Assembly (NCBI RefSeq): GCF_900167395.1
Contig: NZ_FUWK01000005.1
Location: 30,001-62,000 of the forward strand
DNA from: Nitrosomonas europaea
GTDB taxonomy: Bacteria > Pseudomonadota > Gammaproteobacteria > Burkholderiales > Nitrosomonadaceae
Reading direction: 5' to 3'
Length of the DNA: 32,000 nt
The notes below the pieces were generated by a model that made no database searches, had not been told where the DNA came from, and was given only the letters and a program-made list of their open reading frames with translations. Positions 952-11,557 of this stretch are shown here, piece after piece (position 1 is the first letter of the stretch; every line of letters begins with the position of its first letter). The position numbers and the translations under genes are program-made.

Positions 952-3231
952 TCATTTCGATTGTATGGATATGATCAGCTCACCCGCTTCCCGGACTGGA
1001 AACAATCGGGGTTCACGGCAATAGGTAAGCATGAATCGGGTGGGGCCATCTTCGGGGAAACGTTCATGGATCATTTCGAATCGATGCAATGCATCCACCC
1101 GGTTGCCGGTTTGACAAACGTGCAGTGCTTGCTCATACGCGGCACACAGCTGTCTCTGCGCTGCATTGCTGCCACTCTGACGAGCGACCAGTTCAAACAG
1201 GTTGACCGGTTGTGACTTTCCCGGCAGCAGAAACCGCCCGAGCGGACGCAGCAGCAGATCATTCAACCCATTTACTACTTCTTCCGATACCAGCAACCGG
1301 GTACCCAGATGCTTATTGACTCCCTGGATACGGTTGGCTGTATTGACGATATCGCCCACCGCACGGTACTCATAATGCTGTCGTGCACCAATGTTGCCTA
1401 GTACCATTTCACCAAAATGTAACCCTAGCCGGGTTGGAAGGGGCGGACGGCCGTATCCGCCCTGGTGATTGAAGCGCTCTATCGCGCTGATGATATCCAG
1501 GCAAGCCAGGCACGCCCGTTCGCGCACAAGCGGATCAGCAGAACCAGCCGCCCAGATGGCCAGCATGGCATCGCCGATCACATCGGACACTTTGCCCTGA
1601 TAACGCTCAACCGGTTCAAACAGGCACTCATAATATGCATGCATGAGTGCGGCAAGCTGGCGAGGATCCATAGCTTCAGCAAGCGCAGTATATTTTTCCG
1701 CATCTGTCGCCAGGCAGGCTCCATAGACCAGTTGCCCTTCCGTATGGATCGGGCCTGCACCACGAACCATATCCCGCACCACTGGCTCTGGCCGATGTCC
1801 ACCAAACAGCGCCTCGATCCGCCTGCGTTCCCGGTCAGCTTCAAAATACAGCAGGGTGACGATCCCGATCACACCCACCGGTAACTGCACCATCAGCGGA
1901 ATAGCCAGAGGAATCCACAATTGCCATTGTCCGAACAGCCATACACTCGCACTGCCATAAGCACAAAACGACAGGATTCCTGCCAGTGCCATTCCCAGCG
2001 TATGCACCATGGTATTCCTTGCGGGAATGACAAAGCAGAGCAGACAAACACCCGTTCCCAGCAGCAACAGAATGAGGGCACCATTTACCGGTGCTGCCGG
2101 ATGGATCGATTCGCCCTCCAGCAAATTGGCAAAGGCAGTCGCGGCAATTTCCACCCCGCTGAGCGTCAACCCGTCCGGCAAAGAGAAAACGGTCTGGTAA
2201 TCATCTCTGACTTTGTCCTGCCCCGAAACGGTTTCTGCTGAAAAGCCGACAAAGATCGTTTTTCCTGCCAGATCCAGCTCACCGGCCGTTTCCGGTTGAC
2301 CACCGCCTTCATCCAGCAGCAGATGATAAGGAATAGTCCTGATCGTGCGCGGTGGGCCGTAGAAATTCAAGTAACGCACTTCACTGCCGCCATAAAGATC
2401 AATCAGTGCTCGGAGAATACGCTGCTGCGCGGTATCGAGGTTTTCCCCTTCAGCCGATTTCTGCAACAGCTTTTCTGCCAGCACTGGTTTTTGCATGAAT
2501 AGATTGCGCAAATCGAGAACCAGATTCTCGACATCGGCTTCATTCACACTTGCAGGAAGCTGTCGGATCAAAGCAGGATCGATACCGGCAAGCAAAGTGA
2601 GAAAATGCTCGTATACTTCAGCAGATGACAGCTGCAGCAAAAGTGATGGCAACGTAGGCATATCACTGCCACCGGGTCTGAACGTCCAGTAATAACTCAC
2701 CCAGGAGGATTTTTGCAGCGGAAAAGGCGCATGGGCACGTGCGGCATCCGCAATGATCGGCAGAATCTTTCCGGTATATTCCCGCAGAATATGAGTGTAT
2801 GACCCATCCGCAGCCATTCCCGGGAACCGGGTTTCCTCGAAATCCAGCCTTTCCACCAGCACCACATTACCCGCATGCTTAAGCGCCGCAGCAAACTGCT
2901 TATCATGGCGAGCATCGCTGCCGGGCCTGTCGAATACCAGATCGAACACCACTACTCTTGCCCCCGCCTCCACCAATCTGTCGATCAGACGGGCATGCAG
3001 TGCGCGCGACCAGAGGGAAGGTTTGAGCGGCAGCTCCAGATGAGTGGCAGAAGCCTGGTCAACAGCAATGACAACGACATCAGCGGGAGCGGTTCTTTCC
3101 CCGCGCAGATGAAATAGCCAGTAAAGGCCGAATTGTTCCTCGATGGCTGTACCCTGCGGTGACAGATATACAGCAGCCCCCAGCAGGCCAATAAACACGG
3201 CGAGAGCAAACCGCCAGCGCCACAATTTCAT
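952..3231 (-). CDS. CHASE2 sensor-domain adenylate/guanylate cyclase (class III)
   Basis: 759-aa ORF. N-terminal signal/TM, long periplasmic CHASE2-like region (VVIAVDQAS..., VVVFDLVFDRP), a TM cluster, then a class III cyclase catalytic domain (ATDAEKYTALAE...SDVIGDAMLAIW...RLGLHFGEMVLGNIG...EYRAVGDIVNTANRIQ). ATG confirmed at 3231-3229. Confidence 0.9.
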   Translation of the reverse strand: MKLWRWRFALAVFIGLLGAAVYLSPQGTAIEEQFGLYWLFHLRGERTAPADVVVIAVDQASATHLELPLKPSLWSRALHARLIDRLVEAGARVVVFDLVFDRPGSDARHDKQFAAALKHAGNVVLVERLDFEETRFPGMAADGSYTHILREYTGKILPIIADAARAHAPFPLQKSSWVSYYWTFRPGGSDMPTLPSLLLQLSSAEVYEHFLTLLAGIDPALIRQLPASVNEADVENLVLDLRNLFMQKPVLAEKLLQKSAEGENLDTAQQRILRALIDLYGGSEVRYLNFYGPPRTIRTIPYHLLLDEGGGQPETAGELDLAGKTIFVGFSAETVSGQDKVRDDYQTVFSLPDGLTLSGVEIAATAFANLLEGESIHPAAPVNGALILLLLGTGVCLLCFVIPARNTMVHTLGMALAGILSFCAYGSASVWLFGQWQLWIPLAIPLMVQLPVGVIGIVTLLYFEADRERRRIEALFGGHRPEPVVRDMVRGAGPIHTEGQLVYGACLATDAEKYTALAEAMDPRQLAALMHAYYECLFEPVERYQGKVSDVIGDAMLAIWAAGSADPLVRERACLACLDIISAIERFNHQGGYGRPPLPTRLGLHFGEMVLGNIGARQHYEYRAVGDIVNTANRIQGVNKHLGTRLLVSEEVVNGLNDLLLRPLGRFLLPGKSQPVNLFELVARQSGSNAAQRQLCAAYEQALHVCQTGNRVDALHRFEMIHERFPEDGPTRFMLTYCREPRLFPVREAGELIISIQSK

Positions 3232-3510
3232 TTAACCCGGATTATCCATTGACTCGCGAGGCAGGAATATAGCAGGTATCCAACAGGTAACCGGACTGGT
3301 GATGGTGGCAGTGGAATGTGTAACCGTGATACAAAACAGCCCTCTTTGCAAGGTGAAACGCCAAAGCAATCAGCCAACGTTGAAAAACTGTTTTCTACTA
3401 CTCAGAAATCTACCGTGATCTCCTGCCAAACAGCCGATAGGAATACTGAGACCTCTTCTCCGCAATACAGTATTGCGTGGTTGAAGAGTGATTCTTCAAA
3501 AACTGCAGTC

Positions 3511-3559: not shown

Positions 3560-3841
3560 TTAATAACCGCCCTGCCAGGCGTCACCCGATTGTTCTCTGG
3601 CCTTCTGAACAAGCGCAACGATATCGCCACATTTTACTCTGACGATTTTCCCGTTCTCGACTTCAGTATGGCTTTTTACGACATCGGTCGGTTTTTTATC
3701 TTTGCAGGCCAGATAATCCAGCATATCTTTGGCACTGATCGGCGCCAAAGAAGACTCCAGATTTCCACTGGCAAACGTTGCTGTGGAACCCAGTACAAAA
3801 GCAGAAACAAAAGCTGCGACGATCACCTTGTTCATTTGCAC
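3560..3841 (-). CDS. Small secreted hypothetical protein (93 aa)
   Basis: N-terminal signal peptide (MQMNKVIVAAFVSAFVLGSTATFASG), two Cys, own terminator. I recognise no family. Confidence 0.6.
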   Translation of the reverse strand: MQMNKVIVAAFVSAFVLGSTATFASGNLESSLAPISAKDMLDYLACKDKKPTDVVKSHTEVENGKIVRVKCGDIVALVQKAREQSGDAWQGGY

Positions 3842-4618: not shown

Positions 4619-4769
4619 AACCATACACCCGCTGTATCAAAGCCTTGCCGTGACAAACCCGCACAACTCTTCATCATTCCTGCCATTCACTCGGCACGCA
4701 ACTATGCTCTCGTTCCATCTTCGCAAAGCTGCAGGCCGGTAGCCCATTGTTTTTTTGTTGAAATCTTGA

Positions 4770-5867
4770 TCAATCTCCGAACACAGCTTCAATCGTCTGA
4801 GCAGTCAGGATTCGTTTTCCCCAAACCAGCAATGTTTGCGTATCCGCCGATCCAATCCGCGCGCGTACAGCATCGCTCACCGGGCCAAAACGCTGTTCCA
4901 GTAAATACAACAGAAATTCGGATTCTCCTTCCAATCGTCCTTCCTGCCGTCCTTCCAATCGCCCTTCCTGTCGTCCTTCCTGCCGTCCTTCCAATCGTCC
5001 TTCCTGGATTCCTATTTGCTTGCCTTCCTCGATGCCTATCTGTTTGCCTTCTTCGATTCCCTGCTGTCTCCAGTCTTTAGTCCATTCCTTGACACGTTCT
5101 GAGAGCATGCTTTGTACCTCCTGTAAATCATGAATTTCACTGAAGCTGGTCCCCGGCATTCTGCCCGGCAGGAACACCCGTTTCAACCAGACGGTAAATG
5201 ATCGCCGCAGTCCGCTTTGTTCGGGAGATTGCAGCCAGGCGATCAGGGCTTGCAGTACCTGCTCGACATCCTGCGGGGTGCGGCTGTTTTCCAGCCGAAA
5301 CAATGCCGCCGTCAGGTTACGCAAGGTGGCCAGTTCGTGATCACTGTAGCTGCCTTCATCCAGCAGCAGGTAGTTGAGTTGCGGCCGGTAGCGATCCAGC
5401 CCGCCGGGTGCCGGGAAGATCAGTCCTTCCATGTTCACCGGTGCCTGCCAGCGGGTATCCCCATTGTACAGAACCACCGGTAGCACCGGCGGCAGCCGTT
5501 CACCCGTTCTGATGGATTCGCTGCGGATGAGATCCTGATACAGCAAACCGACATAAGTCATGATCCGTACCGCCATGAACCAGTCCACAGTAGACTGGAA
5601 TTCGAGCAGCAGATAGACATACAGCCATTCACCCGTTTCGCCTTTCCCCCGGCGCAGGCGCCAGATGATGTCATCCTGCCGTTCTCTCAGGTCATCGCTG
5701 ATGTAGCTGCCGTTGATTTTCTCCAGCGTGGAAAAATCCAGCTCGTACACCCACTCTTCCCTGACGAAACCACGCAGCAAGTCAGCCACCATTTCAGCGT
5801 GGGAAAACAGCAGTTTGTAGCCATGATCATGCTCCATTGGACAAGTGTAACACCATGGCGTTTTCAT
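4770..5867 (-). CDS. Rpn family recombination-promoting nuclease / putative transposase (YhgA-like PD-(D/E)XK, C-terminal DUF4351-like domain)
   Basis: N-terminus HDHGYKLLFSHAEMVADLLRGFV, catalytic-core-like ...DDIIWRLR...YLLLEFQS..., repeat linker, C-terminal ...FLLYLLEQRFG... tail. The start could instead be the ATG at 5837 (MEHDHGYKLLF). Confidence 0.85.
   Translation of the reverse strand: MKTPWCYTCPMEHDHGYKLLFSHAEMVADLLRGFVREEWVYELDFSTLEKINGSYISDDLRERQDDIIWRLRRGKGETGEWLYVYLLLEFQSTVDWFMAVRIMTYVGLLYQDLIRSESIRTGERLPPVLPVVLYNGDTRWQAPVNMEGLIFPAPGGLDRYRPQLNYLLLDEGSYSDHELATLRNLTAALFRLENSRTPQDVEQVLQALIAWLQSPEQSGLRRSFTVWLKRVFLPGRMPGTSFSEIHDLQEVQSMLSERVKEWTKDWRQQGIEEGKQIGIEEGKQIGIQEGRLEGRQEGRQEGRLEGRQEGRLEGESEFLLYLLEQRFGPVSDAVRARIGSADTQTLLVWGKRILTAQTIEAVFGD
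4927..5058 (-). repeat. In-frame coding tandem repeat, 12-bp period (11 units) inside the Rpn gene
   Basis: Plus strand reads CCTTCCAATCGT CCTTCCTGCCGT CCTTCCAATCGC CCTTCCTGTCGT CCTTCCTGCCGT CCTTCCAATCGT CCTTCCTGGATT, then two 24-bp units. It encodes IEEGKQIG x2 followed by (Q/L)EGR x7. Confidence 0.9.
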
Positions 5868-6551: not shown

Positions 6552-6854
6552 TCAGATTTGTTCGCGATTTATATGGCGAACCACCACTTTTGCACAGCCG
6601 CGCTGCTCAGCCTGCCATAAATCATACGCAAGCTGACCTTTCAGCCAGCTTTCCGCGCTCGGCCCATCAAGCCATGCTTCCAGACGCAGAGCGAGATCGA
6701 CGCTGATACCGGCCTTGCCGTTCAACACGCGCGAGAGGGTAACACGGTTGATTCCCAGCTCTTTTGCCGCTTGGGTTACGGTTAACCCAAGCGCAGGTAG
6801 TACATCCTCGCGCAGGGTTTCACCGGGATAAGGGGGGTTGTGCATTCTGGCCAT
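6552..6854 (-). CDS. higA: HigA-family antitoxin (XRE-type HTH)
   Basis: MHNPPYPGETLREDVL...LTVTQAAKELGINRVTLSRVLNGKAGISVDLALRLE is the classic HigA/VapI pattern. It lies 12 nt downstream of the toxin gene, with AGGAG before the ATG. Confidence 0.9.
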   Translation of the reverse strand: MARMHNPPYPGETLREDVLPALGLTVTQAAKELGINRVTLSRVLNGKAGISVDLALRLEAWLDGPSAESWLKGQLAYDLWQAEQRGCAKVVVRHINREQI

Positions 6855-6866
6855 ATTGACTCCTGT

Positions 6867-7145
6867 TCAGTGGTCATCCCGGTAATCAACCAAGATGACA
6901 TCTTCTCCATCAAATACAAAAATCATCCGCCAGTTACCATTGACCATTACCGACCAATATCCTGACAGATCGCCAGAAAGTGGGTGCAACTTCCAGCCGG
7001 GTATATTCATTTCACGCGGATTGACTGCATCATTCAGCTGCCGCAGCTGACGTGCAAGACGTGAGGCATGATCCGGCCGGATACCTGATTTATCTCCTGT
7101 TTCAAAGAATAATTGCAACCCTTTATGCTTGAAATGGCGGATCAT
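6867..7145 (-). CDS. higB: HigB-type toxin (RelE/ParE superfamily, plasmid maintenance system killer)
   Basis: 92 aa: MIRHFKHKGLQLFFETGDKSGIRPDHASRL...LHPLSGDLSGYWSVMVNGNWRMIFVFDG. The toxin-first gene order is typical of higBA. Confidence 0.9.
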   Translation of the reverse strand: MIRHFKHKGLQLFFETGDKSGIRPDHASRLARQLRQLNDAVNPREMNIPGWKLHPLSGDLSGYWSVMVNGNWRMIFVFDGEDVILVDYRDDH

Positions 7146-7272: not shown

Positions 7273-7599
7273 TCATTTCGCTATTCCAAGGAACACAGCC
7301 AGGCAACGCTCAATCTCTACCATAGTATCCGGGTCGATACATCCGAGAACCGGCCCTACTTTGTCGCGTTTCACCGTTATGATCTTGTCCACCATTACCT
7401 GCGAAGGTTTTTGCAAACCGTTCTCGGCACCAGGCTGTACAGTGATACGTAGCAATGGCGCAGCAACCAGCATGCTGGTGACAGGTAATACCGTTACGCT
7501 GGTATGTTCACTGAACAGGTTAGCCTGAATCACCAGAGCGAATCCGGGTTTACCAAAATCGCCCGGTACAGCGATGGTCACGAGATCGCCGCGTATCAT
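7273..7599 (-). CDS. PemK/MazF-family type II toxin (endoribonuclease fold)
   Basis: 108 aa: MIRGDLVTIAVPGDFGKPGFALVIQANLF...VLPVTS...VMVDKIITVKRDKV, the PemK/MazF pattern. Its start overlaps the antitoxin stop by 4 nt (ATGA). Confidence 0.85.
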   Translation of the reverse strand: MIRGDLVTIAVPGDFGKPGFALVIQANLFSEHTSVTVLPVTSMLVAAPLLRITVQPGAENGLQKPSQVMVDKIITVKRDKVGPVLGCIDPDTMVEIERCLAVFLGIAK

Positions 7600-8247: not shown

Positions 8248-8658
8248 TTAAGGAGTAGGAGTAACGCCAGGACAGCTCTTTGGAGCATATTTATTATCCG
8301 CATCAGTAGCACATGACCAAGTTCCATCAGTACGCGTCAAGGTAATTTTTTTACCACTCACTTGAGATGGAGCGTTCGTAAGCGTACATTCAATGGTAGT
8401 TCCAGAAGTAACAATAGTACAGTTACTAGTCGGTGTTTTAAGACCAATAACCGTAGGATCCGTGCCAACTGTATCACCGTTATTGACACGTTCCTCAAAT
8501 GCGGTCTTTCCTGCTGAAATTTCAGCAAGACCAGCAGTCACTTTCGATTTAGCCTGATAATCTGAATAAGCCGGAATCGCCACGGCCGCCAAAATACCGA
8601 TGATCGCAACGACGATCATCAATTCAATCAAAGTAAAACCTTTTTGGGTATGTTGCAT
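8248..8658 (-). CDS. pilA: Type IV pilin (PilA-like major pilin)
   Basis: Class III signal and N-methylation site [39 protein letters not shown]; two C-terminal Cys pairs (disulfide loops); 136 aa. Confidence 0.9.
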
Positions 8659-9138: not shown

Positions 9139-9600
9139 CTATATTTCCCCGTTTTTGACCATTCTTCTGACAACAAAAGCCACAACAAGTGATACAACAG
9201 TCGTTCCTCCCAGTATCCTGCCAAAACAGGGTACCCTATAAACGCGGAGAATACAGATGCGCTGATTGCGGAGAGCCCTCTATTAAAAAACCAGGAATCT
9301 GACCTCGTGCTGCCTGTTTTTTGATGCCTCAAGCAGTGCATTATCATACTGCTGCTGATGTTTCATACTCGACTCTGCCATGATTAATATCCTTTCAGCA
9401 GCACCAGGTACTATTTTTTCATACCCTTCCAAGATAGCCGGGTGCGGTATCGGACCTAAAAACGTAGCTGACTGAATTTCGGCAGAAACTCTAGTAGAGA
9501 CATTATTTTCGTTTCTATTATTGCTGGAGTGAGCAGATGTACTTCTATTATTTTTGGATGGATGAGACTTGGGCATCATTCTCGAATTTGTTGCAGGCAT
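9139..9600 (-). pseudogene. DUF2335-family membrane protein gene disrupted by two frameshifts
   Basis: Frame 1 (9600-9283) gives ...FLGPIPHPAILEGYEKIVPGAAERILIMAESSMKHQQQYDNALLEASK, then stops at a T6 run. TM1 continues in a second frame (RGLSAISASVFSAFIGYPVLAG) and TM2 in a third (ILGGTTVVSLVVAFVVRRMVKNGEI*, stop 9141-9139). Confidence 0.7.
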
Positions 9601-10017: not shown

Positions 10018-11307
10018 CTATAAGACAGTCTCATCCTCCATGTCAGCAGCGGGCGCACTGAGCCTTCGTACTGTCAGGGCACAGCGTTGCTCGATCAAGA
10101 TCACAATTTGCTCAACCACGGCATGGCCAGCAAAGCCATGCTCACGGCTGGACTGAAGCTCACGCGCCGTCGGCGGCATCGACTTTGCCAAGGCCAGAAT
10201 CCGCTTTCTGGCCTGCGCCTTGCCAAGGCCAACAGCTTCAGAAAATTGGTCCCAGTGCCGTGTCTGTACTTCGCTGAATTTGTACTTGCTGCCGATTTTC
10301 ATCGCCATCTTGGGCGTCAGAGTCGGATAGATCGCCGTCGACAGCACGTCGTAGAACGGCGCCAGGATGGCAGACTTACCCGCATACAGCAGTGAGAAAT
10401 TCTTGGCATGCGCGTCATGATTGCCGATCAGCGCGTTGAAGATCACATAGTCGAACAAGCGCAGGATCTGTGGTGCGCTGGGCCGCGTGATGCGCCGAAC
10501 CAGATCGAAACATTGCACCAGATCCGGGCCGCCTTCGTTCTGGTACTTCATTTCCGGCACCACGCCCAGCGCCTGGCAAAAGTCCTCTTGGTGCAGGCGC
10601 TGCCGCTGGCCTTGTGCATCGACCACCCGGTCGTAGCGCTCGATCAGCAGGAACTGTCGCCCCAACACGGAATGCACCTGTGACTTCGCTGGCTTGAGCT
10701 GCATGGCTTCAGCCAACGCCAGACAGAAGCCTTCGTTGGTGACCGTGTCCATCAGGGTACGGATGGCGGGCTTCAAGATATGTGAGCTGGGCGATCCATT
10801 TCTCGGCAGACCGATCCGGGCGCCATCGGACACCACCGGCAGTTTGTCTTGAGTGCCCGCTAGTGAGAGCCGCACGCCATCCTTGCCGGCTAACATCGGC
10901 CGATGTGGCAGTTCATCGAGAATGGCAACAATCTCTTCCTCGCTCAGCCACTGAACGTCGTCGCCTTGCCCAGGACTGGACAACGACTGCCCTGGCTCCA
11001 GCAAGGTAACAGCCCCGGCACACTCCCCACCGATGTGATCGAGCAACGCAAAATCATTCTGGCTCGACACCTGAAATTGCTGTGCAATGAGGCGCCGGAG
11101 TTGCCCCTCTGGCAAAAGTCCCCCAAAGAAGGGCCGCGTGTGGTGATCGTCGAATGATTCTGCTTGCAGATGCAGTGAGCTGGAGAGGGTCGCTGCATCT
11201 GGGCGTGAGAGCCAATCCGGGCTGTAACGGAAATTCAACCTGTCCTCGATCAGGGCCAGGGTTCCAATCCGTTCGGCGAACAGCCAGACTTCCAGCTCAC
11301 GCGCCAT
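10018..11307 (-). CDS. hipA: HipA-family serine/threonine kinase toxin
   Basis: MARELEVWLFAERIGTL...FFGGLLPEG...LSLAGTQDKLPV...IGNHDAHAKNFSLLY (HipA N-terminal and catalytic motifs). The ATG at 11307 is chosen over the track start because it gives the usual short overlap with hipB. Confidence 0.9.
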   Translation of the reverse strand: MARELEVWLFAERIGTLALIEDRLNFRYSPDWLSRPDAATLSSSLHLQAESFDDHHTRPFFGGLLPEGQLRRLIAQQFQVSSQNDFALLDHIGGECAGAVTLLEPGQSLSSPGQGDDVQWLSEEEIVAILDELPHRPMLAGKDGVRLSLAGTQDKLPVVSDGARIGLPRNGSPSSHILKPAIRTLMDTVTNEGFCLALAEAMQLKPAKSQVHSVLGRQFLLIERYDRVVDAQGQRQRLHQEDFCQALGVVPEMKYQNEGGPDLVQCFDLVRRITRPSAPQILRLFDYVIFNALIGNHDAHAKNFSLLYAGKSAILAPFYDVLSTAIYPTLTPKMAMKIGSKYKFSEVQTRHWDQFSEAVGLGKAQARKRILALAKSMPPTARELQSSREHGFAGHAVVEQIVILIEQRCALTVRRLSAPAADMEDETVL

Positions 11308-11557
11308 GCTGGTTGCCCTCAGGGTGATTTTCGGAGTCTGAGGATGACAAGCCGGTGATTTGGAGCGCTCCACCCAACGCGTCGATCACGCGCAGCACGT
11401 TTTCCAGACGCAGAGTGGGCTTGCCTGCTTCAAGGTCGACGATGAAGCGCACACCAACCCCTGCCGCCAAAGCCAACTGGGGCTGTGTTAAGCCCAGCTG
11501 TTTGCGTGCAGCACGCAGTGCGTCACCGAGTTGTTCTGTGGTTCGTATGGAACTCAT
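11297..11557 (-). CDS. hipB: HipB-type antitoxin (XRE HTH)
   Basis: MSSIRTTEQLGDALRAARKQLGLTQPQLALAAGVGVRFIVDLEAGKPTLRLENVLRVIDALG. Overlaps hipA by 11 nt. The track start at 11560 is a GTG; the ATG is at 11557. Confidence 0.85.
   Translation of the reverse strand: MSSIRTTEQLGDALRAARKQLGLTQPQLALAAGVGVRFIVDLEAGKPTLRLENVLRVIDALGGALQITGLSSSDSENHPEGNQHGA

Follow-up and report, generated by a model that had tools for sequence, protein, structure and literature searches.

Can a single bacterial nuclease gene also encode, in its own reading frame, a smaller protein that holds the nuclease in check? The question is raised by a gene for an Rpn-type (YhgA-like) nuclease on the minus strand of a 32,000-nucleotide (nt) stretch of the Nitrosomonas europaea genome (contig NZ_FUWK01000005.1, positions 30,001 to 62,000), which we analysed as a whole and call the window; all positions are numbered from its first letter. 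Within this gene, a Shine-Dalgarno (SD) sequence is followed by an in-frame ATG from which the C-terminal part of the protein could be made separately. In Escherichia coli, RpnA-E and the plasmid-borne RpnP2 are intragenic toxin–antitoxin (TA) and antiphage systems of this design, consisting of a long form, RpnL, and a short form, RpnS (Zhong et al., PNAS 2023, PMC10400941). We refer to the long and short reading frames of the Nitrosomonas gene as rpnL and rpnS (Table 1).

Conservation of the internal start

The preliminary description of this DNA had placed an SD sequence at 5123-5116 and, at suitable spacing and in frame, an ATG at 5108-5106. Both the minus-strand sequence and the frame of the open reading frame (ORF) bear this out. 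The strand reads ...GAT TTA CAG GAG GTA CAA AGC ATG CTC TCA GAA CGT..., with a spacer of 7 nt (ACAAAGC, 5115-5109) between SD and ATG, or 8 nt when the T that follows AGGAGG is included. This AGGAGG is the only one within the gene and, at −11.6 kcal/mol, it is predicted to pair with the 16S tail more strongly than any other site there. The decisive evidence for an internal start is comparative, and lies in conservation across species rather than in the statistics of a single sequence.

We compared 80 orthologous loci with 47-77% protein identity, drawn from Nitrosomonas, methanotrophs, Thioalkalivibrio, beta- and gammaproteobacteria, Planctomycetota, Acidobacteriota, Chloroflexota and others, by threading their codons onto the protein alignment. 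The internal ATG was kept in 79/79 loci. The codon for E250, which lies within the SD, was GAG in 74/74 orthologs, compared with a GAG use of 49% overall in the same genes and of 38-58% at five other conserved Glu columns, a control that preserves phylogeny. When columns were ordered by codon-choice log-likelihood, that is, by departure from background, E250 ranked first of 249. The codon for Q249 was CAG in 39 of 46 orthologs and that for E257 was GAA in 66 of 71, and TTA and GTA were several-fold enriched at L248, L255 and V251, giving AT-rich synonymous choices around and after the ATG. Third-position GC dropped from 0.68 to 0.47 directly past the internal ATG. The mean folding energy of 50-nt windows was −7.6 kcal/mol at the internal start, up from about −14, indicating less structure, although the Lys/Glu-rich composition may account for part of this rise. 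The internal SD was stronger than the SD of the main start in 52 of the 57 orthologs compared (median −11.0 versus −2.2 kcal/mol; Wilcoxon p = 2e-10). As judged from the alignment, these signals in synonymous sites, ATG, GAG and structure are those of a functional translation initiation region, and constraint on the amino acids alone cannot yield them. An ortholog alignment had been proposed in the preliminary description as a check for conservation beyond what the codons require, and the GAG and ATG counts display such conservation. We conclude from these comparisons that selection acts on the internal start at the nucleotide level, across many phyla.

The small reading frame was also found apart from the large one. 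Searches with the 112-residue query returned many small proteins that begin exactly at MLAERV or MLSERV. Contig ends can create such proteins, so those on short contigs were discounted and only cases on long contigs were taken as evidence. A Ca. Electrothrix genome (L082) carries a free-standing RpnS-like gene for 92 amino acids (2888-3279) that starts at the same Met. About 60 nt of former rpn coding sequence are kept upstream of it (NELGEVRVM, with an SD-like GAGGT), and the nuclease domain is absent within 3 kb. An IS-type transposase gene (IS, insertion sequence) lies about 700 bp downstream of this small gene. In a second locus (L084, 355-3270), a DDE_Tnp_1 IS splits a rpn homolog directly upstream of CAGGAGGTGAGGATGATG. 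It separates the nuclease domain (residues 2-238) from the SD and ATG of the small ORF, and an intact DUF4351 gene of 89 amino acids remains. In a third (L085, 634-3285, and likewise L086 and L087), the reverse transcriptase of a group II intron (RVT_1 + GIIM) breaks up a Nitrosomonas-type rpn homolog and the codon equivalent to Q249 is TAG; AGGAGG, ATG and an RpnS-like ORF of 94 amino acids are intact. The L085-type protein was found on 8 contigs. From these cases we conclude that the unit starting at the internal Met persists, as an ORF, after loss of the long frame.

Two groups of ortholog matches were unusual in their layout. At two loci (L012 at ~4798, L073 at ~5390), the best match to the segment around the internal translation initiation site (iTIS) lay 1.8-2.4 kb past the reported rpn match, which implies a second, adjacent rpn copy in a tandem array; such arrays have been described for other species (PMC10400941). 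At two others (L013, 3001-4342; L069, 3001-4633), the rpn matches spanned 1.3-1.6 kb rather than the usual ~1.0 kb, suggesting inserted DNA or a repeat or linker much longer than usual.

The nuclease and the predicted nested protein

The enclosing ORF (4770..5867, minus strand) encodes 365 amino acids, and ATG 5837 is its M11. Because homologs and the 355-residue database entry P0241 begin M[DE]HDH, the true start of rpnL is almost certainly M11 rather than the first ATG of the ORF (5867). The encoded protein matches the Pfam profile of the Rpn-family nuclease domain, which is also COG5464, with E = 4.2e-29 and 102 bits (cut-off 21). BLASTP aligned it to E. coli RpnA with ~30% identity over the nuclease core (first ~125 residues; E = 4e-15), in which D11, D63, E82, Q84 and R94 of RpnA correspond to D14, D66, E89, Q91 and R101. 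These five residues are invariant or at least 90% conserved among 49 homologs. In RpnA, mutation of D11, D63, E82 or Q84 abolishes activities and mutation of R94 alters them (PMC5350276). As far as the alignment goes, the catalytic residues of the rpnL protein are intact. Near-identical N. europaea proteins bear the NCBI name 'Rpn family recombination-promoting nuclease', and Rpn homologs of 40-52% identity are present on plasmids. Matches to FliH and Yae1_N were rejected as repeat-composition matches to the xEGx tract. A sequence search of the PDB with the full protein and with an RpnS-like profile gave nothing meaningful, and tblastn detected no rpn paralog and no second downstream small-gene copy in the 32-kb window.

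The nested product has the sequence MLSERVKEWTKDW...VFGD and the layout MLSERVKEWTKDWRQQG-(12 four-residue units)-EFLLYLLEQRFGP...VFGD. This agrees with the repeat linker and DUF4351-like tail of the preliminary description in that there are 12 units and homologs pass PF14261 (DUF4351), with 25-35 bits at 48-71% identity; many homologs carry a precomputed PF14261 match. Tandem Repeats Finder (TRF) reported periods of 12, 24 and 36 at 4926-5067. Orthologs of the small product are 64 to 139 amino acids long and have ~1 to ~16 repeats, between a head and a tail that are conserved. Within the N. europaea 90% cluster, nuclease domains are identical and RpnS measures 92, 104, 112 or 116 amino acids, only the repeats differing; some repeat-number variants come from metagenome assemblies, so that an occasional assembly error is possible. 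In an alignment-based AlphaFold2 (AF2) model of RpnS (pLDDT, the model's own per-residue confidence score, 81), one helix spans residues 3-74 with all the repeats, followed by short helices, an arrangement predicted in PMC10400941, and the DUF4351-type tail has a pLDDT above 90. A single-sequence AF2 model (pLDDT 54) was discarded. With hhalign, the RpnS-like profile (alignment A3) matched E. coli YpaA, an RpnS detected by experiment and also known as RpnE_Ss, with a probability of 95% (E = 4e-8, 34 columns). On the plus strand, a TTG-initiated ORF for 104 amino acids (4766-5080, ...LPIVLPAVLPIALPVVLP...) was rejected as the antisense mirror of the GRQE/GRLE repeats.

The two starts differ in their setting. 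There is no SD before the main ATG at 5837 (−2.8 kcal/mol). Upstream of it lie an extended −10-like element, TGtTACACT, in a leaderless-type layout and, after a 19-nt spacer, a −35-like TTGACT at 5874-5869. A TAnnnT that ends exactly 6 nt 5′ of the main ATG occurs in 17/57 orthologs, including distant phyla, and one that ends 7 nt 5′ in 4/57, compared with a mean of 0.8 of the 57 at other offsets. The first ATG of the ORF falls inside the putative promoter and is probably unused. Together, these sequence features suggest that the mRNA for the long form is leaderless, here and in much of the clade. If the toxin depends on a leaderless start and the antitoxin on an SD start, the L:S ratio might follow the balance between leaderless and SD initiation, and a shift of that balance on phage infection or stress might be the trigger that sets Rpn nucleases free. 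We regard this extension as a long shot. It is the sole part of our account that goes beyond published knowledge. Leaderless transcripts go unmentioned in the main text of Zhong et al. (PMC10400941). The conserved contrast between an SD-less, leaderless-looking toxin start and a strong-SD antitoxin start offers a testable idea of how the toxin:antitoxin ratio is set.

A consensus scan also returned a candidate sigma-70-like promoter 5′ of the iTIS. It has 9/12 consensus matches, and 1.0 such site is expected in shuffles. Among Nitrosomonas-clade sequences, its −10-like CAGAAT is kept in 7/10 and its −35-like element in 3/10. A codon-level scan found no synonymous constraint 5′ of the SD outside the Nitrosomonas clade, and we rejected a conserved internal promoter on the ground that upstream synonymous sites are unconstrained in the wider family.

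Table 1. Positions of the rpnL/rpnS features and of neighbouring TA genes in the window
Feature	Position	Strand	Basis or remark
rpnL coding sequence, Rpn/YhgA-like nuclease (355 amino acids + stop)	4770..5837	minus	ORF, homolog starts
PD-(D/E)XK nuclease domain (Transposase_31/YhgA-like), residues 12-216 of the 365-residue ORF	5220..5834	minus	Pfam PF04754
Extended −10-like TGtTACACT, ending 6 nt 5′ of the main ATG (leaderless-type layout)	5844..5852	minus	sequence, ortholog spacing
Candidate internal sigma-70-like promoter TTGAAA-17-CAGAAT, 5′ of the iTIS	5158..5186	minus	consensus scan
Internal SD cAGGAGGt (CAGGAGGT), codons Q249-E250-V251	5116..5123	minus	sequence, anti-SD pairing
Internal initiation codon (iTIS), ATG = M254 of the ORF	5106..5108	minus	in frame; ortholog conservation
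rpnS, nested C-terminal product, 112 amino acids (12.8 kDa) + stop, predicted antitoxin	4770..5108	minus	translation
Hypervariable tract, 12 four-residue repeats (GIEE/GKQI/GIQE/GRLE/GRQE...), RpnS residues 17-64	4917..5060	minus	translation, TRF
DUF4351-type helical tail (EFLLYLLEQRFGP...TIEAVFGD)	4773..4925	minus	PF14261 homologs, AF2 model
HTH_3 antitoxin-like gene, downstream of HigB-like	6552-6854	minus	profile match
HigB-like toxin	6867-7145	minus	PF05015, E 2.5e-20
PemK/MazF-like toxin	7273-7599	minus	overlaps MazE-like gene
MazE-like antitoxin gene, start region (module to ~7820)	7833-7818	minus	PF11455, E 3e-35
HipA-family kinase toxin	10018-11373	minus	HipA_C E 3e-52 + HipA N-terminal domain

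A proposed one-gene toxin–antitoxin module and its rivals

We propose, with a probability of about 0.75, that the gene at 4770-5837 is by itself a TA module of the Rpn type, encoding both proteins. The proposal draws on the anatomy of the sequence, the selection on the internal start, the hypervariable repeats and the homology to validated members of the family. In the mechanism that we envisage, RpnL would be a PD-(D/E)XK DNA endonuclease present at a low level. Its start, lacking an SD and probably leaderless, would be poorly translated, because an ATG without an SD that is probably the 5′ end of the mRNA is expected to initiate poorly. Ribosomes would also initiate at ATG 5108 through AGGAGG, on the same mRNA, a shorter transcript or both, and would make RpnS, identical to the C-terminal tail of RpnL, at a higher level. 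By analogy with RpnA, RpnB, RpnC and RpnP2, the long first helix of RpnS with its four-residue repeats would pair with the tail of RpnL and keep the nuclease inactive. Phage infection or stress would free RpnL, leading to DNA damage and abortive infection. The number of repeats would set the fit between RpnS and RpnL, and it changes fast between strains.

Several observations weigh against this proposal. The preliminary description had held a full AGGAGG at this spacing to be unlikely by chance, but AGGAGG-N5-10-ATG occurs twice in the window against 1.58 occurrences expected from shuffles, and 44 of 100 shuffles of the window give at least two. The other occurrence is the genuine start of the MazE-like gene (AGGAGGACTCCACATG, 7833-7818). 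We therefore dropped the improbability of the motif in a single sequence as evidence. Met has a unique codon, so the invariance of the ATG alone cannot separate protein constraint from start-codon constraint. The tail of rpnL/RpnS scores 19.2-21.3 bits against PF14261, below the cut-off of 25. Foldseek found no match with E<1 to the AF2 model in the PDB and did not recover the RpnA_S structure 7TH0, hhalign detected no similarity to RpnA_S (probability 1.4%), and low-complexity repeats account for part of the match to YpaA. PADLOC-DB v2.0.0 gave zero matches for either product, long or short. An internal rpnS promoter is weakly suggested here by the sequence, as against its presence in each of the five rpn genes of E. 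coli (PMC10400941). The rpnL protein scores 37.1 bits against the NCBIfam model TIGR01784 ('Rpn family'), for which the cut-off is 52.1. Because near-identical proteins carry the NCBI 'Rpn family' name and Pfam membership is clear, this score reflects a divergent Rpn subfamily and is no exclusion from the family. Finally, it is by analogy that RpnS would be synthesised here, that RpnL would be toxic and neutralised, and that the pair would defend against phage.

The first alternative accepts that RpnS is made and gives it a main role other than neutralising a toxin, either as a helix-turn-helix (HTH)-like autoregulator or as an assembly or targeting subunit of a non-toxic nuclease. Selection on the internal start says nothing on toxicity, and HHpred relates RpnA_S to HTH motifs in a study that allows for 'housekeeping roles' (PMC10400941); RpnE of E. 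coli, moreover, has kept its RpnS although its annotation is that of a nuclease-like protein without activity. The residues needed for RpnA toxicity are, however, all conserved in the Nitrosomonas protein, in every pair tested by experiment RpnS prevented the toxicity of RpnL, SOS induction or the cleavage of DNA (PMC10400941), and the strain-level hypervariability of the repeats is more what one expects of an arms-race interface than of a housekeeping regulator. We consider a non-antitoxin role unlikely.

It is more improbable still that the SD-like sequence and the Met are kept for reasons other than initiation, as an elongation pause at a domain boundary or as a structural Glu and Met, with the full-length protein as the only product. 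The site does sit where the nuclease domain gives way to the tail, and some of its conservation belongs to the protein, in which residues E250 and M254 are invariant. What such constraints leave unexplained is the use of GAG in every ortholog at a position where other conserved Glu codons split about 50:50, together with the preference for A and T at synonymous sites and the drop in RNA structure past the ATG. They also fit poorly with the free-standing and upstream-disrupted copies, which keep SD, ATG and small ORF, and with the experimental proof that the equivalent sites in E. coli and Clostridioides difficile rpn genes are starts (PMC10400941).

That the SD and ATG are a chance occurrence, or a functionless relic of a fusion between nuclease and DUF4351 genes, is hardly credible: the motif is about as frequent in the window as expected and free-standing DUF4351 genes exist, but ATG and GAG are invariant in 74-79 orthologs of 47-77% identity from Proteobacteria to Planctomycetota, Acidobacteriota, Chloroflexota and others while other synonymous sites vary freely, so that a relic would have decayed, and the ~50:50 split of GAA and GAG at control columns speaks against unsaturated sites in recent horizontal copies.

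The one-gene TA module is also the reading that the preliminary description had proposed, and it is supported to the extent that the sequence-level features of the published RpnL/RpnS system are present. The TA-rich patch noted there is likewise real: HigBA, MazEF and HipA genes all lie within ~6 kb of the rpn gene, the HigBA-type module (6552-7145) at a distance of ~700 bp. This setting is compatible with location in a defence or TA island. The HipA segment has a GC content of 0.59 and AT-rich flanks (0.42-0.45), which suggests a mosaic or acquired patch. The interval between HipA and MazEF contains genes for a type IV pilin (8248-8658) and a DUF2335 protein (9283-9600). On the other side of the rpn gene, a small protein (3560-3841, minus strand) matches the Pfam family HAO_bd ('Hypothetical protein NE1300') with E = 3e-35. 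A search of 50,697 phage records (E<=1e-3) detected no phage-encoded RpnS mimics.

Comparison with known systems

It is well supported that the locus adds an example to the known RpnL/RpnS family of intragenic TA systems, the design of which has already been shown in E. coli (Zhong 2023), and specialists would have expected this core result. What it adds to these gene-within-a-gene systems is an ammonia oxidiser of the N. europaea type and a broad clade with DUF4351 tails. For that clade, the comparison provides quantitative cross-phylum evidence of nucleotide-level selection on the internal start; in the original paper, conservation of the internal start was inferred from two organisms (PMC10400941). 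Genome annotation overlooks the probable second product of these genes, and the long form almost certainly does not begin at the first ATG of the ORF.

In E. coli, RpnS binds RpnL directly in an L2S2 complex and so prevents its toxicity, SOS induction and DNA cleavage, and one plasmid Rpn system is a phage defence (PMC10400941). The four-residue repeats of RpnS begin 8-20 residues past the Met, inside the long first helix of a helical bundle (RpnA_S crystal structure 7TH0), and each unit combines one hydrophobic residue with charged residues or Gly. Repeat number varies between strains, and L and S must match. Free-standing RpnS copies exist and are annotated as DUF4351 in some species (PMC10400941). 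The Nitrosomonas gene shares with E. coli RpnA-E and RpnP2 the YhgA-like PD-(D/E)XK domain with the same catalytic residues, repeats of the xQEG/xQIG/xLEG kind that begin within the same range (at residue 17), a strain-variable repeat number and free-standing small copies. The internal starts are also alike. E. coli rpnA and rpnE have AAGGAG-6 nt-ATG followed by MTIAERLRQEG-HQIG-WQEG..., the Nitrosomonas gene has AGGAGG-8 nt-ATG followed by MLSERV..., and in both the internal SD is stronger than that of the main start.

There are differences as well. Identity to RpnA is confined to the N-terminal part of the nuclease. The Nitrosomonas tail is of the DUF4351 type and RpnS is longer (112 amino acids versus 49-61 in E. 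coli), with more repeats (12) than the K-12 proteins. E. coli rpnA and rpnE lack the leaderless-type arrangement seen at the main start in the Nitrosomonas clade. YpaA, although it matches the RpnS-like profile, is a separate gene, whereas the small protein in the window is nested in the nuclease gene. Outside Enterobacteria, the L/S design is known from C. difficile Rpn, for which RpnS expression has been shown heterologously (PMC10400941); we liken the two by that paper's description. The clade compared here carries the same signature further, into beta- and gammaproteobacteria, Planctomycetota, Acidobacteriota and others.

Classical type II TA systems such as HigBA and MazEF likewise employ a protein antitoxin that binds and blocks a protein toxin, and as in those systems an excess of antitoxin would be expected here from the stronger translation signal. 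Unlike them, the Rpn toxin and antitoxin share one frame and one sequence, with no separate antitoxin gene or operon; their co-evolution is therefore obligate.

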